The position numbers and the translations under genes were made by a program. A stretch of 64,000 nucleotides of DNA from an uncultured Chloroflexia bacterium (GTDB lineage Bacteria > Chloroflexota > Chloroflexia > QHBQ01 > JADMIH01), in NCBI GenBank assembly GCA_963797095.1, contig CAWCNY010000002.1, positions 352,001-416,000 of the forward strand, written 5' to 3'. Below the pieces are notes generated by a model, which worked only from the letters and a program-made list of their open reading frames with translations, was not told the origin of the DNA and searched no databases. Shown here in pieces: positions 1,260 to 18,020 of this stretch (its first letter is position 1; each line of letters starts with the position of its first letter).

Positions 1260-3833
1260 ATGATCGCATCTCAAGAGACGCAGGAAGCGCCAGAGTCCAC
1301 AACCGGCGATTATCATCTCGCTTCGGGCAAAAGTACGGGGCCGGTTTCTCGGTATTCCGGCCTGAGGCGCATCGTGCGAGACCCGAATATCGGGGTTCCG
1401 ATACTCCTGTTTGTGCTGGCGTTCGTTTTCATGTCGCCAGGGCTGCCACCTCTCAAAGTGGCAGCATCCATGCACCAACTGCTGGTCTTCCCACCGTGGC
1501 AGGCGGTCTATCCGGACGTTACCTCCACTATTCGAGGTGGGGACCCGATCCAGCAGCAACTGCCGTGGCGGCACTGGGCGCAGGACGAACTGGCGGCAGG
1601 GAGATTCCCGCTGTGGGCCAGCGGACCGCTCGGTGGAGCGCCCATATTCGCGTACTACCAGTCGGCGGTGCTCTATCCGCTCAATCTGCTGTGGGTGCTT
1701 GTGCCTATATGGATCGGGGCGGGGATTGTGATGGCGCTCAAGCTGTGGCTGGCGGGGCTTGGGATGTGGGTGTTCCTGCGCGCTCTGAAATTGCACTGGA
1801 CGGCTTCGCTGCTTGGGGCGTTGGGGTTCATGTTCTGCACGAGTATGGTTGTATGGTTGCCGTGGGCGCACACCAATGTGTTTCTACTTATGCCCTGGCT
1901 GGCCTGGAGTATATACGCCTGGTGCGTGGAGGAGAAGCGCTGGGCGCCGGTAGCATTGGCTATAACGCTGGGTTGCGCTGTGCTGGGAGGTCACCCTGAG
2001 AACCTCTCCATCGTGACCATTACAGCTGGGATCTGGGCGCTGGGACTGATAGCGGGGAGCGCCCCGCAACGCTGGCCTCGCCAGGTGGGAGGCTTGCTGG
2101 TGGGGGGCATTGTGGGGCTGGCTATCGGAGCGGTGCAGGTACTACCTTTCCTGGAAGCCTACAACTTGTCTCATATTGCGCTGGACCCGGGTAGGGCCGT
2201 CGCATGGCAAATACACCAGGACGCCAGTATGATGATGGACTGGATCATGCCGCGTTGGTGGGGGCAGATTTTCGATGGAGTGGTGGATGGGCCGCTGGGT
2301 TTCTACGATACCGGGTATGTTGGCCTGCCTGCACTGGTGGGACTCGGTTTTGGGGTGGTGGCTCTAGTTCGGAGAAGGTTGAATCTGAGGCTTGTGCTGC
2401 CGTTGTTGGCGATGTTGGTCTTCGCCTGGATCATCACATACGACGATAATTTCGGCAATTTGATCCGGCAACTGCCGGCGTTCAGCCACAGTCTCAATAT
2501 GCGCTGGGTCTTCTCGGTGGAGTTTTCAGTGCTTGTGCTGGGAGCTTTTGGATGGGATTGGTTTGCGCGCTTCGTGGACGAAAGACGAAGGACGACGGAT
2601 GCTGGAAATAGGGGGCCGGAGAATGCGGTAGGCAATAGTCGCGTATCACGTATCACGTACCCTGTTGTAGTTGGGATAGTGCTGCTGGTGGTGGGGGTGG
2701 TGATTCTTATCGAGCATTGGGTGGGGTTGTTTCAGCAGCCTGACCTGGGCACGCCTCGCGGCAATCTAGCTACCGCGAGTTACAGGTTCTACTGGGGTAT
2801 CTGGGTGGGTGGCGTGGCTTTGAGCATGGCGGGAGCTATCTTATTGTGGTGGCTGGGATGGTTGGGGAGGCGCACCGCGCCTGTTATGGGGCTGGTTATG
2901 GGAGGGTTGCTGACGGCAGACCTCTGGATGTTGCTTTTTACGTTCAATCCCGGCGCGCCCGCCAACTGGTATTATCCGGTCACCGACTTCATCGGCCAGA
3001 CGAAGTCGCTGGTTCCCTCGCCGGAGAGGTTGGTTGCGCAGGGTGAGGTAATGGTGACGAACACGGGGCTTGTCTATGACATACGCGACTGGCGATACCA
3101 GGACCCGATGATCAGCGAGCGATCTTTTCAGGCGGCGGAGCTGCTAAGCCCAGGTTTTAAGAACGAGTTGTGGACGCGGTACAACATGTACTTTTCGGGG
3201 ATAAGGCTGGAGGTAGCCCCGATCTTCGGCATCCGCTATGTCGTGTTTCCGGGGGGCGCGAACCCGGACTACCGGGAGCCGGACCCAGAGATGGCTCCGC
3301 TAAAGAGGCTGGCATTTACCGGAGGGGTTGGTCTGTGGGAGATAGAGGGTGTGCCAGGGTTCACTTATTTGAGCGATTACGTGGAGGCGGTGCCGGGGGA
3401 GGCGGAAGCGCGCAAGTGGGTGCAGAACCTGACCTGGGAGAAGGTGCGGGCTTATCCGGCGGTGGTTGAGGCTCCCGCGAGCGCGTTGGCGAATATAGCG
3501 CGTTCGACTGACGGTACATCGCCCGGCAGCACCGATGTGGTTGCGTATACGCCCGGCCATATCGTGATAGAGACTGACGCACAGCGTCCCGCTCTGCTGG
3601 TGGTGGCCGAGAGCTATTATCCAGGGTGGCACGCCACGCTGGATGGGCAGCCGGTAGAGACGCTACGCGCCAACTATATTTCGCAGGGAGTAGTTGTGCC
3701 CGCAGGTAAGCACACCGTTGAGATGAAGTATGAGCCGGATTCATTCAGAAACGGTGCCTTGTTGAGCGTTGCCGGACTGCTGGGATTGGGTGGGTTGATC
3801 GTCTGGTGGCGTCGGGGAGCACGCCGGGCATGA
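1260..3833 (+). CDS. YfhO-family membrane glycosyltransferase (paralog 1)
   Basis: 857 aa with many TM helices; N-terminal GD..QQQLPW..G.FPLW..GP.GG.P motif; C-terminal LLVVAESYYPGWHATLDG..LRANY..VPAGKHTVEMKYEP typical of YfhO. Confidence 0.85.
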   Translation: MIASQETQEAPESTTGDYHLASGKSTGPVSRYSGLRRIVRDPNIGVPILLFVLAFVFMSPGLPPLKVAASMHQLLVFPPWQAVYPDVTSTIRGGDPIQQQLPWRHWAQDELAAGRFPLWASGPLGGAPIFAYYQSAVLYPLNLLWVLVPIWIGAGIVMALKLWLAGLGMWVFLRALKLHWTASLLGALGFMFCTSMVVWLPWAHTNVFLLMPWLAWSIYAWCVEEKRWAPVALAITLGCAVLGGHPENLSIVTITAGIWALGLIAGSAPQRWPRQVGGLLVGGIVGLAIGAVQVLPFLEAYNLSHIALDPGRAVAWQIHQDASMMMDWIMPRWWGQIFDGVVDGPLGFYDTGYVGLPALVGLGFGVVALVRRRLNLRLVLPLLAMLVFAWIITYDDNFGNLIRQLPAFSHSLNMRWVFSVEFSVLVLGAFGWDWFARFVDERRRTTDAGNRGPENAVGNSRVSRITYPVVVGIVLLVVGVVILIEHWVGLFQQPDLGTPRGNLATASYRFYWGIWVGGVALSMAGAILLWWLGWLGRRTAPVMGLVMGGLLTADLWMLLFTFNPGAPANWYYPVTDFIGQTKSLVPSPERLVAQGEVMVTNTGLVYDIRDWRYQDPMISERSFQAAELLSPGFKNELWTRYNMYFSGIRLEVAPIFGIRYVVFPGGANPDYREPDPEMAPLKRLAFTGGVGLWEIEGVPGFTYLSDYVEAVPGEAEARKWVQNLTWEKVRAYPAVVEAPASALANIARSTDGTSPGSTDVVAYTPGHIVIETDAQRPALLVVAESYYPGWHATLDGQPVETLRANYISQGVVVPAGKHTVEMKYEPDSFRNGALLSVAGLLGLGGLIVWWRRGARRA

Positions 3834-6367
3834 ATGGCGCTCCGGGGTCTACGGTCCGCGATCTAGGGTCCAAGATCAAGAACCTGCAATTGGGGGTTCC
3901 GCTACTTCTGCTTCTGCTGGCATTTGTGTTCATGTCGCCGGGTATGCCGCCTTTTCGGGTGGCCGCGCCCATGGACCAACTGCTTATTTTCCCTCCGTGG
4001 CACGCGGTATTCCCCGATGTGGAGGCACGATTGCTGGGCAGCGATGTGCTGTTCCAGCAGTTGCCGTGGCACCACTGGATGCAGGACGAGCTTAAGGCGT
4101 GGCGCTTCCCGCTGTGGGTGTCGGGGCCGCTGGGCGGGTATCCGCTGTTTGCTTACTACCAGGTGGGAGTGCTTTTCCCGCTGAACCTGTTGTGGGCGCT
4201 GTTCCCTACGGGGGCGAGCTTTGGGCCTATTCTGGCGCTCAAGGTGTGGATCGCGGGGCTTGGGATGTGGCTTCTTCTGCGCGCACTCAACCTGCGCAAG
4301 AGCGCATCACTTTTGGGGGCGCTGGGGTTCATGTTCTCTACGGATCTTGTGGTGTGGCTTCCGTGGAGCCACACGAATGCGTATATACTGCTGCCCTGGC
4401 TGTGCTGGGCCGCCTACGAATGGTGCGACAACAGGAAGAAGGGGGCGCTGGCGGGATTTGCTTTTTTGTGGGCTTGCGCACTGCTGGGGGGGAGTCCGGA
4501 GTTCTTCTTTATAGTGGCGGTGTGTGCAGGATTCTGGGTGCTTGGTTTGATTGTGTCGAGCAGGCCGCAGAAGTGGGGATGGCAGGTGGGTGGGTTGGCG
4601 GTGGCGGTGGCGGTGGGCACGCTGATGGGGGCGATCCAGCTTTTGCCGTTCCTGGAAGCGCTTGGGTTGAGCCACATCGCTACCATACGCCCCGTGGATG
4701 TGGAGGCTGCCGTCGAGCGGGCGCGGCTGCACCTGAGTGCGGATATGATCATCAACTGGGTCGAGCCACGATGGTGGGGACAGGTGTATGATGGGGTGCT
4801 TGGGAACAGTTATTTGCCTAACGAGTCGAACGGGTATGTGGGGCAGGTGGCGCTCCTTGGACTGCCTTTGCTGGCGATAGGGGCGGTCAGGCGCAAGATC
4901 GACTTGCGGCTCATGCTGCCGTGGGTTGCGCTTGTTCTGTTTTGCTGGGTATTGGTGTACGATGATGAGTTGGGGGTGTGGGTGCGGCGTCTGCCCGGAT
5001 TCAGCCAGATGGTGAACGACAGGTTCTTGCTGGGGCTGGCGTTTGGCTTGCTTGTGCTGGGGGCACTGGGGTGGGACTGGTTTGCGCGAGTGCTGGAGGG
5101 GTGGCGGGCGGCGAAGACCGGATCGATAGAGAGTGAGCGCGGTTTGTGGGTTGTGTGGCTTGGGGTGGGCCTTGTTATGGTGAGCACGGTTTTTTTGCTT
5201 GTGCATTGGCTGGGGTTGGTGCCTCACCCTGACGTGGGTATGAGTCTGGACAGGCCGCTTCTTGGGGCGCTCTTTGCGCCCAATGCGGATTATCGGCTTT
5301 ACTGGACCTCCTGGGAGGTTGGGATACTGGTTGGGATCGTGGGGGCGGGGATGGTGTGGTGGGGAGCCTCGCGGGGTGGAGCTAGCGGGGGGATGATGTT
5401 GGGGCGCTTTGCGGTGGTGGCTCCCCTGGCGATCGGGGCCTTTCTGGTGGCCGATCTGTGGCAGTTACTTTTTACATTTAACCCAACCGCGCCAGCCGAC
5501 TGGTATTACCCGGAGACGAGTTTTATTGAGCAGCTGGTGACGAATGTGCCGGCTACAGAGCGGGTGATCGCGGAGGGGGATGCGCTGCTTGCCAACACGG
5601 GGCTGGTTTACGGGTATCGTGATTGGAGGGCGCAGGACCCGATGTTTACCGAGCGTGCTATGGTGGCTTCGACGCTGCTTGACCCCGATTATCGCAATAA
5701 TACGTGGGATCGCTACAACATGAGCCTGCATGACATCCGGCTGCCGGTCGCGCCGATGTTCGGTATCCGGTATTTTGTGTTTCCGACAGATATTGACCCC
5801 AACCACCCAGGCCCGGCGGATCCGGACAGGCCGACTTTTAAGCGACTGGCGTTTACGGAGGGATTGGGGTTATGGGAGGCTGATGGGGTGCCGGGGTTCG
5901 CTTACCTGAGCGATGATGTGACGGCTGTGCCGGACGAGGCTGCCGCACGAGAGTGGATGGACAAGATTACCTGGGAGCAAGTGCGCTTGTATGCGGCGAT
6001 GGTGGAGGCACCTGTGGAGAGGTTGGCGGGCGTGCAGCCTGCGGCAGATGGTAGCTCGCCGGGGTCGGCGTCGGTGGTGGAGTATACGCCTGGGCATATT
6101 CGCGTGGAGGTGGACGCAGCGCGTGCGTCGGTGTTGGTGGTGTCGGAGAGCTATTATCCGGGGTGGCACGCTGTGATCGATGGGCAAGACGTGGAGATAT
6201 TGCGCGCCAATTATTTGTCGCAGGGAGTGGTTGTGCCCGCAGGTAAGCATACGGTTGAGATGAAGTATGAGCCGGATTCGTTCCGGAACGGGGCGTTGTT
6301 GAGCCTGTTGGGTTTGGTGGGGCTGGGGGGATTGGTTGTGTGGCCGCGTTTCAGGAAGGGAGTGTAG
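3830..6367 (+). CDS. YfhO-family membrane glycosyltransferase (paralog 2)
   Basis: Collinear with paralog 1 along its full length. ATG at 3830 overlaps the upstream stop (ATGA), so this start is preferred over 3806. Confidence 0.85.
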   Translation: MNGAPGSTVRDLGSKIKNLQLGVPLLLLLLAFVFMSPGMPPFRVAAPMDQLLIFPPWHAVFPDVEARLLGSDVLFQQLPWHHWMQDELKAWRFPLWVSGPLGGYPLFAYYQVGVLFPLNLLWALFPTGASFGPILALKVWIAGLGMWLLLRALNLRKSASLLGALGFMFSTDLVVWLPWSHTNAYILLPWLCWAAYEWCDNRKKGALAGFAFLWACALLGGSPEFFFIVAVCAGFWVLGLIVSSRPQKWGWQVGGLAVAVAVGTLMGAIQLLPFLEALGLSHIATIRPVDVEAAVERARLHLSADMIINWVEPRWWGQVYDGVLGNSYLPNESNGYVGQVALLGLPLLAIGAVRRKIDLRLMLPWVALVLFCWVLVYDDELGVWVRRLPGFSQMVNDRFLLGLAFGLLVLGALGWDWFARVLEGWRAAKTGSIESERGLWVVWLGVGLVMVSTVFLLVHWLGLVPHPDVGMSLDRPLLGALFAPNADYRLYWTSWEVGILVGIVGAGMVWWGASRGGASGGMMLGRFAVVAPLAIGAFLVADLWQLLFTFNPTAPADWYYPETSFIEQLVTNVPATERVIAEGDALLANTGLVYGYRDWRAQDPMFTERAMVASTLLDPDYRNNTWDRYNMSLHDIRLPVAPMFGIRYFVFPTDIDPNHPGPADPDRPTFKRLAFTEGLGLWEADGVPGFAYLSDDVTAVPDEAAAREWMDKITWEQVRLYAAMVEAPVERLAGVQPAADGSSPGSASVVEYTPGHIRVEVDAARASVLVVSESYYPGWHAVIDGQDVEILRANYLSQGVVVPAGKHTVEMKYEPDSFRNGALLSLLGLVGLGGLVVWPRFRKGV

Positions 6368-6594: not shown

Positions 6595-7962
6595 TTAGCC
6601 GCGCTTCCAGGGTAGGCGGATGCGGTTGCGCGCCATCTCTTCGAGGAGGCGCACACGTTCTTCGAGGGCTATGATGGCGGCATTCTTGCGCTCGATCTCG
6701 GCTTCCAGGTGCTGGGTGTAGAGGGATGCCCTGGTTGCGCTTACTCTTTTTGTTGCTCTTTCAAGAGATTCGGGAAGTGCGGCACCTCTGGTGGGGCGTT
6801 CGGGGGTCATGTGGAAGAGGAACCATTGGCCATCGGTCTGGCCTTGCATGATGGCGCGCTCACCCGTTCCTACGAGGGTTGCAGAGATGTAGTGTTGGAA
6901 GATGCGCTCTTCCTCGCTTCTGTAGGGCTGGAAGTGGGTTTCAGGTTGGACCAGAGGGCAGAGGGTGGTGAAGCGTTTGGTGCTGAAGTTGTCGAGGAGG
7001 GTTTCAATAAGGCGTTCGCTGGACACGTCCTCGAAGGGCAATTCTTCTTCATCGTGTGTTTGGGGGTTCGAGGATTTGTGCTGCACTTGCTCAAGAGCCT
7101 CGGCGCGCATACCTGCTCGTACTACGTCCAGCATCTCGGCGCAGAGGATCTCCTGGAAGGTTTCCCAGCCGAGGACGGGGGTATCGTCGAAATCAATCGC
7201 CAACGCGCCCCAATCCAGCTTTGCTGCTGTACCGGTCACCGTTTTGTAGAGCCATGCCGGGTCGTTGTCCTGGACCCAGGCCAGGAACGGGTCCAGTTGG
7301 GCCATCACGATGTCGTGGAAGGCCCAGGTGTCCATGGTGGCTACTGCATGGTCTACGCCGACGAAGGTGCCGCCGGGCTTGAGGGAATGGCGCACCTGTT
7401 CCAGCAGTCCTTCAAGGTTTGCGATATGGTGGAGGGAGTCCCAGACGACCACGGCGTCGAACTCGCCCGCGGGGAGCTGGGCGTTGTTGAGGTCGGCATA
7501 TTCATACTGGACGCTGCCGAAGATGGTGGGGTCGTAGTCAAGCCCTGCGAAGTTTCTGTAGAGGTAGGGGGAGTTGCGGGTGTTGGTGTCGGCCATGTAG
7601 CGGGCCAGGGCGAGGTTGGCGGGGGAGATGTCGAGGGCGAGCACGTTGGCCCCGAGGCGGGCCATTTCGAGGGAGAGCCACCCAGCACCGCAGCCGAGGT
7701 CGAGCACGCGCAGGCCGGGGCGAGGGACGGCGGTGCGCAGGACGTAGGCGATCTCGCTCATGCGGAAGTTGATGCCGCTGGGGCCGAGGCAGAATGGCCG
7801 CCACTGATGGTTGTACCTGAACTGGGTAAAGGTGAGCCGCCAGTCGATGGAGCCGGGGATCTCGCCGCGCATTAGCCTCTGGGCAACGAAGCTGTCCCAG
7901 TACTCGCCTTCGCCTTCGAGGGCTTGGGTGTATTGGTCGTCCGGAATGTGGTTTGCGGGCAT
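6595..7962 (-). CDS. Class I SAM-dependent methyltransferase with C-terminal coiled coil
   Basis: Motifs VLDLGCGAG, LDIS and FDAVVVWDSLHH..LKPGG; C-terminal heptad-like LEAEIERKNAAIIALEERVRLLEE. Confidence 0.8.
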   Translation of the reverse strand: MPANHIPDDQYTQALEGEGEYWDSFVAQRLMRGEIPGSIDWRLTFTQFRYNHQWRPFCLGPSGINFRMSEIAYVLRTAVPRPGLRVLDLGCGAGWLSLEMARLGANVLALDISPANLALARYMADTNTRNSPYLYRNFAGLDYDPTIFGSVQYEYADLNNAQLPAGEFDAVVVWDSLHHIANLEGLLEQVRHSLKPGGTFVGVDHAVATMDTWAFHDIVMAQLDPFLAWVQDNDPAWLYKTVTGTAAKLDWGALAIDFDDTPVLGWETFQEILCAEMLDVVRAGMRAEALEQVQHKSSNPQTHDEEELPFEDVSSERLIETLLDNFSTKRFTTLCPLVQPETHFQPYRSEEERIFQHYISATLVGTGERAIMQGQTDGQWFLFHMTPERPTRGAALPESLERATKRVSATRASLYTQHLEAEIERKNAAIIALEERVRLLEEMARNRIRLPWKRG

Positions 7963-7980: not shown

Positions 7981-8028
7981 CACGAAGATACGCAGAAGTA
8001 CGACTTCGTACTTCTGCGTATCTTCGTG
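7981..8028. terminator. Perfect 23-bp inverted repeat (hairpin; possible terminator or repeat element)
   Basis: CACGAAGATACGCAGAAGTACGA-CT-TCGTACTTCTGCGTATCTTCGTG, immediately downstream of the SPFH gene. Confidence 0.55.
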
Positions 8029-8039
8029 GTAGAAGCTAA

Positions 8040-9056
8040 TTACATCCGGTCGAGGACTTCTTTCACTTTGGCGTCGTACTGCTCCTGGGAGATCAGGCCG
8101 TCGGTTAGCATTTGCTTTAGCTGCTTGAGGACGGTGGAAGGATCGGGAGCGGCAGGTGTTTGCGGTTGCTGCTGCGGCTGCTGGCTCTGCGCCTGGGCCA
8201 TGTTCTGGCCGATGATCTGGGCCATGCCAGCGCCTACGCCCATGCCTGCACCGAGGCCGACACCGAGGCCAGCCGCGCCGCCTGCGTCGCCGCCCTGGGC
8301 CGCGCCCTGGCCGACGCCGCCAATAGCCTGCGCCGTCTGGTACTGGAGGTACTGGTTCATGTTGCCGACCACGCCCATGCCTGTGCGCTCGTCGATCCGC
8401 TTGGAGACCTCTTCGGGGGGCGAGATGGTGGTGACGTAGAGGGCCTTGAGGATGAGGCCGAGGTTAGCGAAGTCGTCGTTGACGGAGGCCTTGAGGCCCG
8501 CGCCCACCTCGTTGTACTTGGCGGGAAGGTCGAGGAGGGTGGTCATGGTCTCGCCCATGATATCGTTGAAGCGCGAGACTATGATGCTGCGCAGGTAGTC
8601 CTCGATCTGGCCGGTCTCATAGAGGCCCTGGGTGCCTACGACCTTGTTGACGAAGAGTTGCGGATCGTTGACGGCCATCGCGTAGGTGCCAAAGGCGCGC
8701 AGGCGGACCATGCCGAACTCGCTGTCGCGGAAGGTCACGGGTTCCATAGTGCCCCACTTCATATCAAGGAGGTCGGCGAGGTTGACAAAGATCACCTCGG
8801 CCCGGAAGGGCGACTTGCCGCCGAAGGGGAGGCTGATGAGGTTGGCGAGGAGGGGGATGTTCATGGTGGAGAGGGTGTGCCTCCCCGGCCCGAACACGTC
8901 GAGGGCTTTGCCGTCGCGGAAGAAGACGGCAGCCTGGCTCTCGCGCACAACCAGTTGGGAGCCAAGCCGGAATTCGCCTGACCCGCCCTCAGGCACACGG
9001 TGAACTATCTGACGGCCTGTTGGGTCTAAGAACTCTACTACATCCAGAATTGCCAT
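8040..9056 (-). CDS. SPFH/band-7 domain protein (YdjI-like) with C-terminal SHOCT
   Basis: Motifs GSQLVVRESQAAVFFRDGKALDVFGPGRHTL, KWGT.EP and LRAFGTY; Gly-rich linker; SHOCT-like LKQLKQMLTDGLISQEQYDAKVKEVL; RBS AAGGAG. Confidence 0.9.
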   Translation of the reverse strand: MAILDVVEFLDPTGRQIVHRVPEGGSGEFRLGSQLVVRESQAAVFFRDGKALDVFGPGRHTLSTMNIPLLANLISLPFGGKSPFRAEVIFVNLADLLDMKWGTMEPVTFRDSEFGMVRLRAFGTYAMAVNDPQLFVNKVVGTQGLYETGQIEDYLRSIIVSRFNDIMGETMTTLLDLPAKYNEVGAGLKASVNDDFANLGLILKALYVTTISPPEEVSKRIDERTGMGVVGNMNQYLQYQTAQAIGGVGQGAAQGGDAGGAAGLGVGLGAGMGVGAGMAQIIGQNMAQAQSQQPQQQPQTPAAPDPSTVLKQLKQMLTDGLISQEQYDAKVKEVLDRM

Positions 9057-9150
9057 GTGATTGCTCCTTTATTGGGTTGCAAGTTCCAAGTTCCTAGTTT
9101 CTCGTTCCAGGTTTTGCTTGTCGCATGTCAATAACCAGGAACCAAGAACT

Positions 9151-9831
9151 TTACTGTCCGCCGCTCATGCCCATCTTGGTTTTGAGGTCGGCTAATTGCT
9201 GGTCGATCTGGGTGTTGCGCTCGTCGGTGTCGAATCTGCCAGCCACATCATCGCCTTCGTCGCTGTTTAGCTCGGCTTCGGCTCCCTGGCGTGCCTCTTC
9301 CATTCGTATGCGCTGCTCCATACGCGACAGATCGCTGCTGTAATCGGTCACGTCGAGGTTGCGGCTGGTCTGGTCGATCTGTTGCTGTACTTTTACACGG
9401 CGGTGGCGGGCAAGGAGGGAGTCGCGGTTATTGACCGCATCCTTGTACTTGTCCTCCAGAGCATCAAGTTGCCCACGCAGGCGAGTTACCATCTCGGTCT
9501 GGGCTTGAAGCTGCTGCTGAAGCACGGTAATGTTGGCGTCCGAGTCGGCCTTGCGCTTGAGGGCCTCTTTCGCCATGGCGTCGTTCTCCATACGGACGTA
9601 GTGCATGGCGCGCTCTTCCATGTGCTTGGCTTTGTCCTGCTCGGCTTTCAGGTCGTCTTGATAAAGTTTCTGCTGGGCCATCATATCGGCCACCTGGTTG
9701 CGCGCTTTGCTGATCTCGCTCTCCATATCGCGCAAAATCTGGTTGAGCATTATCTCCGGGTCTTCCGCCGAATCGAGCATGTCGTTGATGTTTGCTCGGA
9801 TCAGCGTGGACAGCCTTTCTAGTATTCCCAT
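9151..9831 (-). CDS. pspA: PspA/IM30 (Vipp1/ESCRT-III superfamily) protein
   Basis: Starts MGILERLSTLIRANINDMLDSAEDPEIMLNQILRDME; long coiled coil with LAKEAL.RK-like motif; ends IDQQLADLKTKMG. Confidence 0.92.
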   Translation of the reverse strand: MGILERLSTLIRANINDMLDSAEDPEIMLNQILRDMESEISKARNQVADMMAQQKLYQDDLKAEQDKAKHMEERAMHYVRMENDAMAKEALKRKADSDANITVLQQQLQAQTEMVTRLRGQLDALEDKYKDAVNNRDSLLARHRRVKVQQQIDQTSRNLDVTDYSSDLSRMEQRIRMEEARQGAEAELNSDEGDDVAGRFDTDERNTQIDQQLADLKTKMGMSGGQ

Positions 9832-9930
9832 CTTGGTGTTCCCCCTTTTTGTTGATGCATGATTACGAGTGACGAGTGACGAGTGACGGAATGCATAGTA
9901 CGAAGTAAGCAGTACGCTGTAGTTCGCGTA

Positions 9931-11208
9931 TCACACGTTGCCGTCTTGCCTGCTGTTGTCGTCTATTGCTTGGGCATCGAGGTCGTCGGCGTCGTTGGAT
10001 AGTTTCGGAGTGTCGGCCAGGTCTTCGCCCGGTAGGGAGGGCGAGGAGGCCGATTCGATGCCGGTGTTGTCGTCTGCGCTGCCCATGCTGGTGCTGTTAT
10101 ACGCACCACCGGAGACCATGCCTCCGCCTGTGGCGAAATCGTCTGCCCGGTCGCTCATTGGTGGTGTAGGGCTAGCGCCCGCGTCTGTTGTGCCTGAGCC
10201 TGAGGCGGCCGGTGGCATGCCTGCTCTGCCAGAAGATGGCTTAGGCATATCCGGGGCCGGTGGAGGGGCGGTCATTCCTCCTGATTGCGCGCCTTCCTGA
10301 TTGGACCAGGGTGAGGGCGCTGAGGGCCACTGGTCGATGGGTGGCACCTCGTCCATGCGTCCCACCTGGCTTGAGGCTTCGGCTCGCGGTGTCTCAGGCT
10401 TGTCCTGCGCCGTGCCCATGCCGGTTGCACCGCCGCTCATATCACCTGCGCCCGTGCCCTGGACTCGTGCCATATCGCCGCCTGTCTGCGGTGGCATAGG
10501 CATGGTGGGCGTGCCTGTGGGTGATGTGCCGATTGTGGAGGGAGGGGCAGGCGGAGCCATGTAGGGCGCGCCTGTGGAGGGTGTTTCGGCTGACGGCGGG
10601 GCCATAGGAGGAGGGGGCGGGGCCATACTCTGGTTGAGATCGCTCATCATACTGTTGTATTCGTCCTGGGGCAGGCCGCGCCCTGTGCTGATGAAGTCCT
10701 GGCGCTGGTTGAGGCGCAGGTTTAGCTCATCGACCTCGCCGGAGAGGCGGTTGAGCGCCGCAGGCACGTCGCCCTTGTCGGTGTCCATCACAGCAGATTC
10801 GAGCGCGCTTATGGCCGACGAAACTTGATCGACGCCCGCTGTAAGGGCCATATCGAATGCATAGAGTTGATCCAGGTCTTGTTCTTCGACCTTTACGGGG
10901 TCGAAAAGGCCGGTGTAGCCGTAGGTGGCGGTGTTGAGTTTGTCGATAAATCGCTGGAGCACTCCCGCGATCCTGTCCACTTCAGCAATATATTCAAGGT
11001 TCTTGCCGCGAACCATCCCCTGCTGCACGCGGGTGAGGCGGGCGCGCCCCTCTGAGTACTGGTGCGCCAGGTATGTGCGGAGCAATTTGTCCGCGTCTCT
11101 CCGCCGCTCGCGCTCCATATACCCGTTGAAGCCGGGTATGATGCCCGCGATCTTGTGGAGAAAATCGTTGGGCTTGTCACCCATCACCCTGTTGCGAATA
11201 TCCATCAT
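9931..11208 (-). CDS. Hypothetical protein: helical N-terminal domain plus long Pro/Gly/Asp-rich disordered tail
   Basis: AGGAGG precedes ATG ATG at 11208/11205. The first ~190 aa look globular (IPGFNGYMERERRRDADKLLR..ATYGYTGLFDPVKV..LDQLYAFD); the remainder is low-complexity. Confidence 0.75.
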   Translation of the reverse strand: MMDIRNRVMGDKPNDFLHKIAGIIPGFNGYMERERRRDADKLLRTYLAHQYSEGRARLTRVQQGMVRGKNLEYIAEVDRIAGVLQRFIDKLNTATYGYTGLFDPVKVEEQDLDQLYAFDMALTAGVDQVSSAISALESAVMDTDKGDVPAALNRLSGEVDELNLRLNQRQDFISTGRGLPQDEYNSMMSDLNQSMAPPPPPMAPPSAETPSTGAPYMAPPAPPSTIGTSPTGTPTMPMPPQTGGDMARVQGTGAGDMSGGATGMGTAQDKPETPRAEASSQVGRMDEVPPIDQWPSAPSPWSNQEGAQSGGMTAPPPAPDMPKPSSGRAGMPPAASGSGTTDAGASPTPPMSDRADDFATGGGMVSGGAYNSTSMGSADDNTGIESASSPSLPGEDLADTPKLSNDADDLDAQAIDDNSRQDGNV

Positions 11209-11393
11209 GACCTCCTGTTCGAGTTTCCAGTGCCGCGCAACGTGCTTTGCGTAGTACATTATGCGTTACTGTAGCTCGTAAACGCATTTCGCACTCCGCG
11301 TTAAGCTCGATATGTTAGTTAATCTACGCGGAGGGCGCAGTCCGATAGCAATTATACATATATGCCCCCGTGATAGCTACATCCATAATCCTT

Positions 11394-11420
11394 TACGAAA
11401 CGGAAATGCAATTGGTTGCA
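11394..11420 (-). promoter_or_regulatory. Candidate ECF-sigma promoter TGCAAC-N17-CGTA
   Basis: Minus strand reads TGCAAC CAATTGCATTTCCGTTT CGTA, upstream of the hypothetical-pspA-SPFH genes. Confidence 0.4.
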
Positions 11421-11533
11421 TTTTGACCGGCTTTGCTACCGTGTGGAGGGGGGAATAAGGGGCAACTCCCGCCACCCTAAGGCTTTCAACGGCAGGTTTT
11501 TCATTAGGACCCACTGGTGAGTGCAGGCTAACA

Positions 11534-11726
11534 CCCCTCGCCCCCGGCCCCTCTCCCCATAAAATGGGGAGAGGGGTCTAAAAAGAAGAAGTAGAGTTAG
11601 GGGGACACCCCAAACCCCCTGTGAGGGGAGTACCCCTGCACCCCCTTCTGAGTTGGGTAGCAGAAGTAGAACCCCTCACCCCCTGCCCCGCCTCCTTCAT
11701 CGGCACCCCGCGTTCGGGGAGAGGGG
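11534..11726. repeat. Nest of GC-rich REP-like hairpins and a GGGGACACCCC..CCCCTGCACCCC element
   Basis: CCCCTC..CTCTCCC..GGGAGAGGGG-type hairpins at 11534-11576 and 11672-11726; a ~55-bp element at 11600-11655 recurs at 12900-12954. Confidence 0.6.
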
Positions 11727-11734
11727 AGTTAATC

Positions 11735-12876
11735 ACTCACCTTACGCAGCCAGGCGAACAGGTTGAAGTTGGCGGAAGGTATCAAAGGCAACCTGCATGG
11801 CACGCAAGTAGATAGTGCTCTTTAGAGCAAAGTGGTTGAGATGATTGGACAGCTTCAACAATTCGAGCTTGACGTACCCACACAAAGAGGCAAACAAATG
11901 GTTGGTCTGGGTGCACACTGTGTGAGTTGGCGAGCGTTCCAAAGAAGCATTCTGCTTCAGCGACTTGTGATACTCTTCCACGTTCCACCGTCTCTGGTAG
12001 ATTGTGGTGATTTGGTCGAAGGTGCATGTCACATCCGAGCACACCAGATACTGGGTGATTTGACCACCATCTTCGTTTGCGAAGAGTTGCTTGACCAATA
12101 TCAAGGGGAAGTCTATCCCTTCAAGATAGACCGTCCGCACCTCACCCGTCTCCAGCGGCACACTGTCCACACGCATGTACCGACCCTGTCGTTTGTCTCC
12201 CTCGGTAAAGGCCACCTTGCGGTTGGTCTTGAGAGGCATGATGAAATCCCCCTCCAATTCGACTTTGACGAAGCGCATATTGTCCGCCGAGGCATACCAC
12301 ACGTCATTGAGCACGAAGTTGAGTACGAAGCGGAACAACACTTGGTTGTGCTTGGCTTGCCGCAACAACGCCTGATAGTGCTCGTTCTTACTGACCGGAT
12401 CACGCCGCTTGGTTTTGCCGTCTTTAGGGTCCACATACTGCTCGGTCTTTCTTACCAACCGAAAACCCACGGGCAGCGACACCTCCAACTCAGGCACATG
12501 GTACAAGGCCGAGAGGAAGTTTATCCCCTTGACCGTTGTGCCTTTGGAGTGGTCATAGTGCCAGGCGATGATGTCGTTCTCATCTGTGTACGGCTTCTCC
12601 GAGATGGAGTCGTCCACGATGATGCACCCATCTTCTTGCTCAACGGCTCGCACATGAGGCTTGACAAAATGCCACAGGTCAGCAGAGGTGAACTCTCCCT
12701 TGGAGAGGAAGCGTTGAATGGGGTCATGGCTCACGCTTCCACTCAGCAATGCGCTCAAGCCCGTGCCGGTGGTCAGACCGAAAGAGCTTATCAGGTAGTC
12801 AGTGTACAGATCAAGCAGTTCTTTGTTCGTCATCCCTTTAGTCTACCATTCAACACTTCGGCTGCGTAAGGTGAGT
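11735..12876 (-). mobile_element. Complete insertion sequence, IS701-like (DDE)
   Basis: Perfect 17-bp terminal inverted repeats ACTCACCTTACGCAGCC (11735-11751) and GGCTGCGTAAGGTGAGT (12860-12876) enclose one transposase. No clean target-site duplication (taatc versus taatt). Confidence 0.85.
11742..12833 (-). CDS. IS701-family DDE transposase
   Basis: Motifs SHD..QRFL, IIVDDSISEKPY (D1), VLNDVWY (D2), YQRRWNVEEYHKSLKQ (YREK/E). The stop codon lies inside the terminal IR. Confidence 0.88.
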   Translation of the reverse strand: MTNKELLDLYTDYLISSFGLTTGTGLSALLSGSVSHDPIQRFLSKGEFTSADLWHFVKPHVRAVEQEDGCIIVDDSISEKPYTDENDIIAWHYDHSKGTTVKGINFLSALYHVPELEVSLPVGFRLVRKTEQYVDPKDGKTKRRDPVSKNEHYQALLRQAKHNQVLFRFVLNFVLNDVWYASADNMRFVKVELEGDFIMPLKTNRKVAFTEGDKRQGRYMRVDSVPLETGEVRTVYLEGIDFPLILVKQLFANEDGGQITQYLVCSDVTCTFDQITTIYQRRWNVEEYHKSLKQNASLERSPTHTVCTQTNHLFASLCGYVKLELLKLSNHLNHFALKSTIYLRAMQVAFDTFRQLQPVRLAA

Positions 12877-12899
12877 TAATTAATGGAAAGGAGAGAGTT

Positions 12900-12954
12900 G
12901 GGGGGACACCCCCAAACCCCCGGCAGGGGAGTACCCCTGCACCCCTTTTAGTTG
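12900..12954 (+). repeat. Second copy of the ~55-bp GGGGACACCCC..GGGGAGTACCCCTGCACCCC element
   Basis: Direct repeat of 11600-11655 on the other side of the IS. Confidence 0.6.
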
Positions 12955-13020
12955 AGCAGTGGGGAACACCACCTTTGGTAAGGGGTTAGGCTGCAATTGA
13001 AGGCATTGCGAGCATCTGCG

Positions 13021-13047
13021 GTGGGGCGAGTCATGACTCGCCCTTAC
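13021..13047. repeat. GTAG-class REP-like palindrome
   Basis: GTGGGGCGAGTCATGACTCGCCCTTAC, directly downstream of the DUF2207 gene. Confidence 0.5.
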
Positions 13048-13067
13048 AAGCGAAGTTGAATGCTCCC

Positions 13068-15065
13068 TCAGTCGGCTCCACCGCCGCCGCCACCACCGCC
13101 TCCGCCGCCGAAGCCGCCGCCACCACCGCCCCAGCCGCCTCCGCCACCGGAGCCGCTGCTGCTGGGCGTGCTGGTGAGCACGTTGGAGGCAGAGTTGATC
13201 ATGGAGGTGAAGCTATCGGAGAGGCCCTGGATCGCGCCTCCTATGGAGTTGCTCATCCCCTGCATTGCCCCGCCGACATCTAAGCCACCTCCACCTCCGA
13301 CAGGTGCGGTTGGCGTGCCGCCTCCCGTTGAACCCTGGTTCGCACCGCCGTAGTACGGGACCCAACCGTAGGGAATGTAGTAGGTGGGCATGGGCATAGC
13401 GTTGGCTGGCACGCTGTTGAACTGGCTGATGTACTGGCGGTCAACGCCGAGGGCCACAGCGTAGGGTAGGTATTGTTGGAACTTCTGGGCTGCTACTTGC
13501 ACGTTACCTTGCGTGTACTGCTGGATGCTTTGCAGATAGCGCTGGAATGCCCTCCACTTCTCGGCTTCTTCGGAGCCGAAGTCAGTCTTGCGGGGCATGA
13601 CCCTCGCCATCATTATTCGCACCACGCCCACCAGGCCAAGACCGAAGGCAGGCACGGCCAGCATCTGGCTGTAGGCATCGCCGAAGGTGAGCCACAGGAC
13701 GCCCACTATTATGCCAAGAATGATGATGCCGACGCCAATGCCCCTGTGGCGCGCTCGCACGGTCTCAGGGTTTTCGGGGAAGTACTTCAGCCTTACCATC
13801 TCTCTGTACATGCTGCTGTATATAGGCGGGAGGCTGGAATAGAAGCTGTTCTTGAGGTCGGAGAGGTTGATAGACTGGCCTTTCTTGAAGAGGGCGTTGA
13901 GGACCAGGCGCTCGAAGTCGTACTGGGTGTTGTTGCCTGTCTGGGTGTATGTGAAGTCTTTGTTGCCGCCGAAGCCGAGGAACCCGGCAGACTGGGTTTC
14001 AGCAATTGTCAGATTGCCCTTCTTGCCCATATCTACGATAGTGGCAATCACATCGCGCACGTCGGCGGACTCGTCGAGGAGGGTGCCCACCAGGCCGGGT
14101 GGCAGGTCGCTGGGGGGGTCGGCCAGGTAATCGATGGGGAGCTTGACGGGCTTATCGCGACCGGCAGTGTACCAGTGCCTGATGGTCAACAGGATGCCGC
14201 CTATGGTTATGAGTAGGCCGAGCAAAAGGACGCCCAACTCAACGAAGGGGCGTATGGTGCTGTCATATTGGGCCTGCCTCTGGCGGGCAGCCTCGGCGTC
14301 TTTCTCTTGCTGGTCCACTCTTTCCTGCCAGGAAGGCTTGACAGGGGAGAGTATGCCCTTGGGTATTTGCGCGCCGATCTCGAAACCGGCGCTCAGGCTG
14401 TTGTTGGCGGTCCATATGATCTTGTTGTCGACCTGGCGCACCTCGGCGCTGTTGGGGGATTGGTTGGTCTTCCAGCCCGCGGTGCTGGTGGCGCTTGGGA
14501 AGGTTACTTCGGCCCTGCTGGCGTAGACAGGTGCTTGCCAGCCGGGAGGCACGGCGTACCAGTCGAACTCGTCGCGGTCGTCATAGACGCGGATCGCGCC
14601 TGAGGCGTGGTAGGAGACGCGGAAAGTGCGGGTGGCATGCGAGGTGTCGCCGAATATCCAGCGTATCCTCAGGAGGGAGCCGGTGTTTTCGGTGCCGTAG
14701 GTTTGAGATGCAGCAGAGTCGGCGTCGTCATCGCCGTTGAACGCCGTTTGCTTGTAAGGGATGTAGGTGTTGCCTTTAACCTCGTCTACTTTTACACCGC
14801 TTATGCCATCTACTTTGTCGAGGTCTATTTCTCGCAGTCCCCGCTTGAATGTACCGCTCTCGAAGACGTAGGTGAGGAACTCTTGCACGTCGAGGGAGCC
14901 ATCATCGTTGACGGTGATGTCTGAGTCGTAGCGGTCCATGTGATACTGCTTCTCCTGGGCATAAGCGCGTGCAGGAGCGCCGAGCACCGCCAACGCGGGC
15001 AGGACGATGGCTCCCAGCAGGAGAAGTAAGAGGGGAATTGAAAATCGCTTCCTGAAACTAAACAT
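13068..15065 (-). CDS. DUF2207 (YciQ-like) membrane protein
   Basis: Signal peptide; YDSDITVNDDGSLDVQE beta-rich ectodomain; PP..LPPGLVGTLLDE..IATIVDM..KG; EKWRAFQRYL, YLPYAVALGV; Gly-rich C-terminus. Confidence 0.88.
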   Translation of the reverse strand: MFSFRKRFSIPLLLLLLGAIVLPALAVLGAPARAYAQEKQYHMDRYDSDITVNDDGSLDVQEFLTYVFESGTFKRGLREIDLDKVDGISGVKVDEVKGNTYIPYKQTAFNGDDDADSAASQTYGTENTGSLLRIRWIFGDTSHATRTFRVSYHASGAIRVYDDRDEFDWYAVPPGWQAPVYASRAEVTFPSATSTAGWKTNQSPNSAEVRQVDNKIIWTANNSLSAGFEIGAQIPKGILSPVKPSWQERVDQQEKDAEAARQRQAQYDSTIRPFVELGVLLLGLLITIGGILLTIRHWYTAGRDKPVKLPIDYLADPPSDLPPGLVGTLLDESADVRDVIATIVDMGKKGNLTIAETQSAGFLGFGGNKDFTYTQTGNNTQYDFERLVLNALFKKGQSINLSDLKNSFYSSLPPIYSSMYREMVRLKYFPENPETVRARHRGIGVGIIILGIIVGVLWLTFGDAYSQMLAVPAFGLGLVGVVRIMMARVMPRKTDFGSEEAEKWRAFQRYLQSIQQYTQGNVQVAAQKFQQYLPYAVALGVDRQYISQFNSVPANAMPMPTYYIPYGWVPYYGGANQGSTGGGTPTAPVGGGGGLDVGGAMQGMSNSIGGAIQGLSDSFTSMINSASNVLTSTPSSSGSGGGGGWGGGGGGFGGGGGGGGGGGAD

Positions 15066-15154
15066 TACACACCCTCTCTATTGAAACGAATGTAAGTGAA
15101 ATACCTGAGAAACGCCCCAGGGATCGGGATCACCGCATCGCGAACGCGTTAGCG

Positions 15155-15799
15155 TTAGCTCTGGGCGGGTGGGGTGGGCTGCGACGGCGGTGCTGCGGGC
15201 GGCGTGGGTGGGGGAGGCGGTTGCGATGGGGAAGGGACCGGCTGCGTGGGTGGGGCCGGGGTGGCGGTTTGGGCCGACTTGGGGATGAAGAACTCAGCAC
15301 CGCAATACTCGCACCGGATCACTCCTTTGCCGCCCACGACCTGTGGAGCGCCGCAGTTGGGGCATTTGCCCGTGATCACCGCCTGGTTGATAACGGCAGC
15401 GTCAGCCGAGACGAGCTTGCCGCCCTTCCAGTCTACATATCCGGTAAAGAGACCTTTGCCGACGAGGTCGTACAGGGCGTTCTTCACCTGGTCCAGGGTC
15501 ATGCCGGTTTCAAGGGCGACGTTGCCGAGCTGCACGGTGCCCTGGGTGGCGACCATGTTAAGTATCTTCTTCTGCTTCTCTACTTCAGCGAATTGGCCGG
15601 CTTCGGTCCTGCCTTGCATTGTGAACCATACACCAAAGCCTGCTATTACAGCGGCGGGTACAACACAGAAAGCGATTCCGAGGGTCTTGGCAGCGGAGTC
15701 GGTGGCTGTGTTGGTGGCGAAATAGGCTATACCAAGTACGGCAACGAGCACGCCTATGCCGATCAAAATCATGCCAATGGTACGTCCAGAGCCGATCAT
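15155..15799 (-). CDS. Membrane protein: 2 TM, PCI-like winged helix, C4 zinc ribbon, Pro-rich tail
   Basis: Two N-terminal hydrophobic helices; ILNMVATQGTVQLGNVALETGMTLDQVKNALYDLVGKGLFTGYVD; CPNCG..CEYCG; RBS GGAGGT. Confidence 0.75.
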   Translation of the reverse strand: MIGSGRTIGMILIGIGVLVAVLGIAYFATNTATDSAAKTLGIAFCVVPAAVIAGFGVWFTMQGRTEAGQFAEVEKQKKILNMVATQGTVQLGNVALETGMTLDQVKNALYDLVGKGLFTGYVDWKGGKLVSADAAVINQAVITGKCPNCGAPQVVGGKGVIRCEYCGAEFFIPKSAQTATPAPPTQPVPSPSQPPPPPTPPAAPPSQPTPPAQS

Positions 15800-15871: not shown

Positions 15872-15899
15872 TATACGCACGCGTTCTGCCCCGGTTTCG
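15872..15899 (-). promoter_or_regulatory. SigW-like ECF promoter CGAAAC-N16-CGTATA
   Basis: Minus strand GAAAC (15898-15894), 16-bp spacer, CGTA (15877-15874), about 75 bp upstream of the start at 15799. Confidence 0.55.
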
Positions 15900-15983
15900 C
15901 ACGCACAAAACGGACCCTGGATGGGGAGAAAGCGTACGAGGCAACTATACACTATGGACGCGGGAAATGTCTATTTTGGAAAT

Positions 15984-17423: not shown

Positions 17424-17563
17424 GGTAGTCGGTAGTCGGTAGTCGGTAGTCGGAGGACGATAGTTCCTGGTTCCTGGTTCCTGGTTACTCGTCACTTGTC
17501 ACTCGTCACTTGTCACTTGTCACTTGTCACTTGTCACTCGTCACTCGTCACTTGTCACTTGTT
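17424..17563. repeat. Array of 20 tandem heptamers in three motif blocks
   Basis: (GGTAGTC)4 GGAGGAC GATAGTT (CCTGGTT)3 (ACTYGTC)10 ACTTGTT = 140 bp, filling the whole NUDIX-obgE spacer. Confidence 0.85.
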
Positions 17564-18020
17564 ATTCGTTGGGCTCCGGGAATTTGGCTTTGAGCTCTGC
17601 CTGGGCTTTCGTTACTATCTGTTTGTCTTTTTCGTAGGTGAGCAAGTTCTGGACCTCATCTAGGGGAACCCAGCGTGCTTCTGAGACTTCCCAGTTGGGT
17701 TTGCCTAGTTCGTTGCTGGTGGCTTCTATCAGGTAATGGTAGACGGTTTTGTGTATCAGGTTGCCGCTGGGTTTGCGGAAGTAGTATTCGACTTTGCCCA
17801 ATGGATGGAGGATGCGGGCATCCAGGCCGGTTTCCTCCTTGATTTCGCGTATGGCTGTCTGCTCTCTGGTTTCCCCGGCCTCGATGTGGCCTTTGGGGAG
17901 GGACCAATCGTCGTGACGTGCTCGCTGGACGGCCACGATTTGCCAGCCTGTGCCACAGGGATTGGGGCGGAAGACGACGCCGCCTGAGCTGTATTCATCT
18001 TTCGTCTCAGGTCTTTTCAT
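17562..18020 (-). CDS. NUDIX hydrolase (Ap4A hydrolase/MutT-like)
   Basis: Nudix box WSLPKGHIEAGETREQTAIREIKEETGL. Confidence 0.9.
   Translation of the reverse strand: MKRPETKDEYSSGGVVFRPNPCGTGWQIVAVQRARHDDWSLPKGHIEAGETREQTAIREIKEETGLDARILHPLGKVEYYFRKPSGNLIHKTVYHYLIEATSNELGKPNWEVSEARWVPLDEVQNLLTYEKDKQIVTKAQAELKAKFPEPNE

Follow-up and report, generated by a model that had tools for sequence, protein, structure and literature searches.

Five co-oriented genes on the minus strand of a 64,000-nucleotide (nt) stretch of an uncultured Chloroflexia genome (contig CAWCNY010000002.1, positions 352,001 to 416,000; the window) probably (about 60%) encode an envelope-stress complex that is induced by an extracytoplasmic function (ECF) sigma factor and that, by analogy, follows the logic of the Bacillus pspA-ydjGHI operon with other membrane anchors. 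In order of transcription, as called from open reading frames and domains, they specify a 214-amino-acid (aa) protein with a two-transmembrane (2TM) hairpin, a PCI-type winged helix, a C4 zinc ribbon and a Pro-rich tail (15155-15799), a candidate membrane adaptor; a 665-aa DUF2207 membrane protein (13068-15065), a candidate receptor or anchor; a LIMLP_15305-related soluble four-helix bundle of about 180 aa, extended by a variable tail of low complexity (9931-11208; the helical protein), the constant neighbour of SPFH; a PspA/IM30 protein, ESCRT-III-like (9151-9831); and a soluble YdjI-type SPFH protein (Band_7_1) with a SHOCT-like C terminus (8040-9056). The case is built from the genes, their domain content, synteny, gene fusions and a promoter motif, all of them read from sequence.

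Gene neighbourhood and the place of PspA

Successive genes of the operon are separated by 89, 1859, 99 and 94 nt. The long gap, between the DUF2207 and helical genes, contains a complete IS701-family insertion sequence (IS; 11736-12875) and short repeats; the original prediction from the window's sequence had put an IS and repeats there. That prediction also held that PspB, PspC, PspF and LiaRS are missing, and these families indeed had no match among the 12 window proteins scanned.

Synteny was scored from the PCI gene at 42 non-redundant loci (duplicates L058, L130 and L133 were dropped, and L004 was counted in the genus group on the strength of its identity and its place in the tree). The survey covered Chloroflexota genomes and metagenomic loci, and its by-genome figures describe this phylum; a locus was assessable for a gene that was seen or when enough flank was available, which biases the counts slightly towards presence. 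All 8 assessable loci of the genus group hold the five genes in the window's order, so the grouping is not due to chance, and the synteny expected among relatives was borne out. Outside the genus group, SPFH accompanies the PCI gene in 22 of 25 loci, the helical gene does so in 21 of 26, DUF2207 in 22 of 27 and pspA in 1 of 25; the order is frequently DUF2207-PCI-helical-SPFH. Eight of the 14 other genomes with the PCI gene (89-99% complete) had no pspA match anywhere, and in the remaining 6 pspA is unlinked and distant. A module built around PspA, as originally proposed, is therefore not what we find.

Of 301 Chloroflexota genomes sampled, 12 encode the complete PCI protein, and the helical gene is present in 43; the PCI gene occurs in 22 of 30 relatives, a tally that takes in the unpublished genomes G316 and G326, which enter no other claim. 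At the best 80 of 555 metagenomic helical-gene loci from a search limited to 600, SPFH directly follows the helical gene in 50 of the 59 with enough flank, the PCI gene is present in 7 of 54, DUF2207 in 3 of 26 and pspA in 0 of 44. From these synteny counts we draw a hierarchy in which the helical and SPFH genes form the core, DUF2207 and the PCI protein are an anchor pair and PspA is optional. The proposed lineage specificity thus holds for the five-gene form and fails for the helical-SPFH core, which is widespread.

The window's PspA (PF04012, E 1.7e-43) is one of 11 module-linked PspAs (genus group, L008, G273 and G020) that make up one side of a branch with 100/100 support in a midpoint-rooted tree; the other side holds 12 Chloroflexota PspAs, including this genome's second copy. 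In a quick SPFH tree, which likewise has no other phylum as outgroup, the sister family that lacks PspA nests with the pspA-bearing L008. Because the module PspAs group together and the sister family nests in this way, repeated loss of a dedicated PspA fits better, although unproven; a recent insertion of pspA in the genus was rejected as the simplest story, as the PspAs of L008, G273 and G020 fall into the same group. The second pspA (L066:9475-13920, G000:C4) is first in an operon that also encodes a solute-binding protein and two small membrane proteins, and has an ECF motif upstream in the looser form used below.

Candidate membrane anchors, fusions and the SPFH scaffold

The main reason for joining the parts into a putative chain, DUF2207-hairpin-bundle-SPFH, is that the hairpin follows DUF2207 whatever its cargo and can join the bundle. 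In 12 other genomes the same two-helix hairpin is fused to the four-helix bundle and DUF4178 instead of PCI (an unnamed family; L037-L044, L046 and L067-L078), with hhalign probabilities of 98.7 and 99.1. Pfam DUF4178 was checked on three of these proteins and exceeded its cut-off in two, and the fusion lies directly after DUF2207 in 10 of the 12 genomes. In G273 a hairpin fusion is followed by pspA, and in G020 a bundle-DUF4178-like fusion is followed by pspA and SPFH. DUF4178 is described as a pspA neighbour in PMC11237479.

The pairing of the bundle and SPFH genes is observed directly; binding of their products is weakly predicted by co-folding, with a score of 0.49 against 0.00 for the best control. 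The mark applied was reached by 116 of 157 solved pairs and 2 of 215 mismatched pairs, but only 18 of the 157 solved pairs, along with both mismatches, reached it with a score of 0.60 or less. Runs share at least 81% of contacts, with a partner pLDDT of at least 77.

The PCI protein has hydrophobic helices at residues 7-25 and 39-57, then the winged helix and the zinc ribbon, whose four cysteines are all invariant in 66 aligned sequences. Its predicted model is of low confidence (pLDDT 63, pTM 0.34), with the winged helix at model residues 66-140. Foldseek ranks COP9, proteasome-lid and DDRGK1/UFL1 chains highest (best E 0.004, with no match as low as 0.001); structural realignment places CSN2 first (Z 9.5, rmsd 1.8, 71 residues), and PCI or DDRGK1 chains make up most of its top 50. 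Pfam PCI (PF01399) is matched by 24 of 25 isolated winged-helix domains (E up to 1, best 9.5e-7), the window's own scoring 13.3 bits against a cut-off of 22 bits and several relatives passing it. Because fold search, realignment and profile agree, we type the winged helix as PCI, closest by model and profile to COP9 and proteasome-lid subunits and to DDRGK1. Its profile likeness to DUF2207_C is weak (probability 54). Among cluster representatives, 942 match the 2TM-PCI-zinc-ribbon family at E up to 0.001, zinc-ribbon-only matches included.

Helix-turn-helix (HTH) proteins also appear among the matches, including an AsnC-family chain (E 0.0035) and, in the same realignment, the NiaR-type transcription factor TM1602 (Z 8.5), and HTH genes often adjoin pspA (PMC9239133). 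The protein could accordingly be a membrane-tethered transcription regulator that passes a DUF2207 signal to DNA. We consider this highly improbable: PCI matches dominate and the PCI-type wing motif is among them, the operon already has an ECF promoter motif, and the same hairpin carries a non-DNA-binding bundle with DUF4178 in the 12 fusion genomes.

The original prediction drew an analogy with ESCRT-II, the winged-helix protein acting as adaptor. In a reading of this kind the membrane-tethered winged helix would bind helix 1 of PspA directly and nucleate an ESCRT-III polymer; a precedent is VIA1, a transmembrane (TM) and winged-helix protein that binds VIPP1 (10.1101/2023.10.10.561251, to which PMC7619361 points). 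A membrane-anchored winged helix does share an operon with pspA in the eight genus-group loci and in L008, a hairpin fusion lies upstream of pspA in G273, and the module PspAs form a group of their own. Yet in 24 of the 25 outside loci, as well as in the eight genomes in which no pspA was found, the winged-helix gene persists without pspA, so its conserved partner cannot be PspA; it travels instead with SPFH and DUF2207. The G273 hairpin protein beside pspA has no winged helix, and the best structural and profile matches are PCI subunits. The top matches in the fold search suggested for this protein were PCI-type, and ESCRT-II chains were not among the matches listed in three fold searches, nor were ESCRT-II/EAP30 Pfam families among the first 25 of 49 families matched by winged-helix members, absences that exclude no relation. 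Kinship with ESCRT-II is unproven, the top matches being PCI subunits found from a low-confidence model, and as an account of the locus we regard the ESCRT-II-like adaptor as quite unlikely.

DDRGK1 is a membrane-anchored winged-helix adaptor. By analogy with it and with HflK/C-FtsH, the SPFH cage and PCI adaptor might serve membrane protein quality control, capturing membrane proteins that are damaged or stalled, for a protease or insertase to act on, with PspA incidental. DDRGK1/UFL1 chains rank near the top (Foldseek 24-26% identity, E 0.007-0.025; Z 8.0-8.3), multi-winged-helix relatives match E3_UFM1_ligase, and the operon's promoter motif also lies upstream of yidC and of a zinc peptidase. 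The likeness to DDRGK1 is, however, confined to the winged helix, and in the loci inspected by eye none of the conserved neighbours was recognisable as a protease or ATPase gene. Quality control is compatible with a stress-induced complex and does not exclude it; as a separate explanation we think it unlikely.

Relatives of the PCI protein include large families with four TM segments (4TM), tandem PCI winged helices and a zinc ribbon (P0163, P0164, P0179 and P0207-P0309), some duplicated; their E3_UFM1_ligase matches are weak, and P0254 is fused to a beta-propeller. Genomes of family f13 encode proteins of about 355 aa with a coiled coil, a PH-like region and a zinc ribbon (L045:1492-2553, L048:583-1653, L050 and L054), the PH-like region weakly matching Vps36_ESCRT-II (E 0.0057); we take them to recall the Asgard Znr_CC_PH proteins.

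The helical protein most likely begins at 11208, because a GGAGG site precedes the ATG there and none precedes the ATG at 11259. Residues 1-190 are confidently modelled as a four-helix bundle (pTM 0.78), followed by a 235-aa low-complexity tail that is rich in P, A, G and S and varies between relatives. NCBIfam LIMLP_15305 (NF047596) aligns over positions 28-172 of 175 (E 6.6e-15) at 55 bits (55-58 bits over searches), below its cut-off of 210 bits, and by this profile the protein belongs to a related, broader unnamed family beside LIMLP_15305; the published mention of LIMLP_15305 is a locus tag in a table. The fold search proposed for this product gave no clear structural relative (Foldseek best E 0.12), realignment reached Z 11.7-11.0 (a designed repeat and an Rx-CC bundle), a range common for helical bundles, and LemA was not among the structural matches listed. 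As a lead only, an ESM Atlas cluster that resembles the helical protein is 67% archaeal, with Nitrososphaerota the commonest. Many f13 genomes (L134-L148) have the helical gene ahead of xanthine-dehydrogenase-like genes, as labelled from their sequences.

DUF2207 is recognised by its N domain (E 2e-22, 80 bits, cut-off 24) and C domain (E 1.5e-42, 146 bits, cut-off 33). Its four hydrophobic segments frame the layout: an N-terminal segment, the N domain, a TM segment, DUF2207_C, two TM segments and a Gly-rich tail, an end that is kept in 21 of 22 orthologues. Neither DUF2207 domain had a PDB sequence match, nor did the SPFH profile. We dropped the idea that DUF2207_C has a GPP34-like fold (1 of 27 members, E 0.021). 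LemA is associated with DUF2207; as a partner here it was rejected, as no LemA was found in this 93%-complete genome and a literature search for the association was also empty. DUF2207 is duplicated or triplicated in tandem inside the module in L006/L133, L008, L062, L119 and L121, and where the window has its IS, L119 carries two inserted genes, read from their sequences as SRPBCC-like and zinc-dehydrogenase-like.

The SPFH protein (Band_7_1, E 2.9e-66) has no hydrophobic segment, and the SHOCT match of its C terminus (E 6.6e-5, 23 bits) is under the 27-bit cut-off. The family was also matched in a B. subtilis control, and the YdjI-type label is given by family. Across orthologues whose tails were read, the C-terminal module is SHOCT-like, a double zinc ribbon or a short HTH-like domain.

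ECF-type promoter motifs and a putative regulon

A SigW-type ECF promoter motif, CGAAAC-N16-CGTATA, lies 72 nt upstream of the first gene (15872-15899, minus strand) and is the single match in the window (0.01 expected). It resembles the SigW signature of B. subtilis, TGAAAC with CGTA (PMC5758882), where pspA and flotillins are SigW targets (PMC8144471). Aligned upstream regions carry [TC]G[AC]AAC-N16-CGTATA in 10 of 11 cases, and the motif precedes 11 of 13 genus-group operons, 11 of those 13 having served to discover it. Held-out tests with the looser G[AC]AAC-N16/17-CGT[AC] placed it before 10 of 32 operons from outside the genus (0.24 in shuffles, maximum 3) and before 28 of 72 metagenomic helical genes (0.35 in shuffles, maximum 4; these are the loci of the 80 with about 220 nt or more upstream, and some are kin). 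As background, the looser motif precedes 34 of the genome's 3109 gene starts, and a genome-wide search with the stricter motif found 7 sites at spacer 16, 12 at spacer 17 and 0-5 at other spacers. The conserved motif supports the envelope-stress role that had been proposed for the locus.

A second SigW-type motif, TGCAAC-N17-CGTAAA (11392-11420, minus strand), lies past the IS and ahead of the helical, PspA and SPFH genes; helical genes have the motif at 5 of 9 other genus-group loci. Because this site is downstream of the IS, the last three genes would keep a promoter, and silencing by the IS, which we considered, is unlikely. A sigma-70-like motif, TAGACA-N18-TATAGT, is at 15944-15973 (minus strand), and its TAGACA box recurs in most genus-group upstream regions.

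Elsewhere in the genome, the ECF motif precedes the best SigW-like sigma gene, which we call only SigW-like because it scores 154 bits, under the SigW cut-off of 243. The following gene weakly matches zf-HC2 and is presumably RsiW-like by its architecture; the locus (L271, G000:C5:582969-584726) comprises the sigma (583019-583936), this zf-HC2 membrane protein and a bactofilin-like gene. With the motif in its own promoter the sigma is likely to be autoregulated, and it is a candidate master switch of a putative SigW-like regulon. The motif also precedes a two-gene operon that ends in a Band_7+Flot flotillin, its first gene having no Pfam match and being putatively YuaF-like. Also behind the motif are yidC, Zn_peptidase_2, a family 5 solute-binding protein, Yip1, DUF4342 and two ABC transporters, which together with the flotillin operon and the second pspA make up the putative regulon (L262-L270); several further sites have no convincing gene behind them.

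Common regulation could by itself explain the locus, as a gathering of independent SigW-regulon genes under one promoter that form no complex. The parts are separate in several genomes and there are two promoters. Against this, domain fusions unite the hairpin and the bundle, adjacency survives changes of gene order across classes, and co-folding weakly supports an SPFH-bundle pair; we find regulatory gathering alone very unlikely.

Proposed mechanism, known systems and flanking features

We hypothesize that the SigW-like sigma and a zinc-finger anti-sigma, encoded elsewhere, turn the operon on from its two promoters; the promoter motif is present, and induction would come from envelope stress. 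The membrane receptor or anchor would consist of DUF2207 together with the PCI-zinc-ribbon protein's two-helix hairpin, the two replacing YdjH and YdjG, a role suggested by gene adjacency and domain swaps. The cytosolic four-helix protein would bind the soluble SPFH protein and tie it to the anchor, a link to which the hairpin-bundle fusions point, and the PCI and zinc-ribbon domains may provide surfaces for protein interaction. SPFH would then oligomerise beneath the membrane and, where the module-linked PspA is kept, recruit it to stressed membrane in the manner of YdjI, which has no membrane anchor and depends on YdjG/H to get to the membrane, after which it recruits PspA (PMC8581546). The best reading of PspA is as a dedicated but dispensable effector on a scaffold that also has a PspA-independent role; a developmental phenotype of SamGHI is reported not to need PspA (PMC13713150).

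The parallel with B. subtilis pspA-ydjGHI (pspA-samGHI; PMC8581546, PMC13713150 and PMC11237479), drawn in the original prediction, is supported. Both loci have PspA, close with a soluble SPFH gene of the Band_7_1 type, encode a zinc-ribbon membrane protein and a larger one whose tail is of low complexity, and carry a SigW-type promoter, here a sequence match with a sigma below the SigW cut-off. YdjI ends in a zinc ribbon, and some module SPFH orthologues end in double zinc ribbons. By contrast, pspA-ydjGHI has the TPM protein YdjH, whereas the locus has DUF2207 and no TPM match in any of its proteins; YdjG combines two zinc ribbons, an NTF2-like domain and a TM segment, sharing with the locus protein (2TM, PCI winged helix and one zinc ribbon) only a zinc ribbon and membrane anchoring. 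The locus also has the extra four-helix protein, the most constant SPFH neighbour, and in this copy a SHOCT-like tail, and PspA is missing from most module loci. Because it has neither TPM nor the YdjG architecture, the module is, by analogy, one that works like pspA-ydjGHI and not a strict member of that system.

The PCI proteins of the COP9 signalosome, the proteasome lid and eIF3 share the winged helix (Z reaching 9.5; Pfam PCI matched by 24 of 25 domains). Compared with these and with DDRGK1, the locus protein is bacterial and has a single small domain followed by a zinc ribbon, with no helical-repeat part, and similarity is seen in the domain alone. ESCRT-II (Vps22/25/36) and VIA1 resemble it in their membrane-held winged helix and, in this genus, in its operon with an ESCRT-III-family gene; they differ in that the locus protein does not travel with an ESCRT-III partner (pspA at 1 of 25 outside loci). 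VIA1 has an N-terminal winged helix and three TM segments, whereas the single winged helix here is C-terminal to the hairpin and occurs mostly without PspA.

Several observations weigh against a stress-induced complex of this kind. The co-folding pass is weak, and at such scores a pass is wrong more often than right unless the pairing is likely beforehand; the PCI-protein model is of low confidence; and the sigma is short of the SigW cut-off. The promoter is absent from 22 of the 32 other operons and upstream of 15 of 17 further Chloroflexota helical genes and 6 of 7 helical genes of the sister family and L008, some start positions being approximate. DUF2207 is located elsewhere in G025, G002, G015 and G037, the PCI gene has no partner nearby at three Caldisericaceae loci (L009, L012 and L014), and at 9 of 17 loci examined (L134-L148, L151 and L152) the gene after the helical gene is not SPFH but xanthine-dehydrogenase-like or other, by labels from sequence reading. 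A Streptococcus DUF2207 mutant is described as sensitive to acid and peroxide and not more sensitive to envelope antibiotics (PMC10457818).

The linkage of PspA with Band 7 proteins and winged-helix neighbours is already in print (PMC9239133, PMC11237479 and PMC10936438). The SigW-type promoter is newly described here; the combination of DUF2207, PCI and the bundle was not found in the literature searched, whose scope left out the PMC11237479 web-app tables, the PMC9239133 external data sets and bioRxiv supplements, and one PMC11237479 supplement file contained no DUF2207 or PCI. For three unstudied families (DUF2207, the bacterial 2TM-PCI-zinc-ribbon family and the LIMLP_15305-like bundle) the locus suggests roles that can be tested, and it outlines a SigW-like envelope-stress regulon in Chloroflexota. 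It also presents a YdjI-type SPFH scaffold that could be anchored by unrelated receptors, usually without PspA, which bears on PspA-independent roles of such scaffolds. More speculatively, a membrane-anchored bacterial PCI adaptor that oligomerises through its winged helix may form, with DUF2207 and the four-helix protein, a stress-induced SPFH-cage platform into which an ESCRT-III polymer can be plugged or from which it can be unplugged. We offer this bolder version only tentatively; if true, PCI/DDRGK1-type adaptors and SPFH-ESCRT-III coupling would have a modular forerunner in prokaryotes, and DUF2207 would gain its first mechanistic role.

The IS701 element, which is outside the module proper, is on the minus strand among REP-like repeats and encodes a transposase at 11742-12833 (NF049921, 322 bits, cut-off 250); it has 16-bp inverted repeats and a 7-bp target duplication with one mismatch. 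Several more IS701 copies occur elsewhere in the genome, and the short repeats around this one have 46-47 BLAST matches each genome-wide. A perfect 23-bp inverted repeat just past the SPFH stop (7981-8028) is a likely terminator; a further copy was sought in the genome and none was found. Because this hairpin separates it from the SPFH gene, a SAM-dependent methyltransferase at 6595-7962 is probably outside the module, and it follows the module only in the window and in two genus-group relatives (L119 and L126). Two tandem YfhO-family membrane proteins lie on the opposite strand at 1260-6367. Heptamer tandem repeats occupy intergenic gaps at 9862-9888, 17453-17578 and about 9085-9150, and two heptamer units tested genome-wide formed 73 and 18 arrays of at least three copies.

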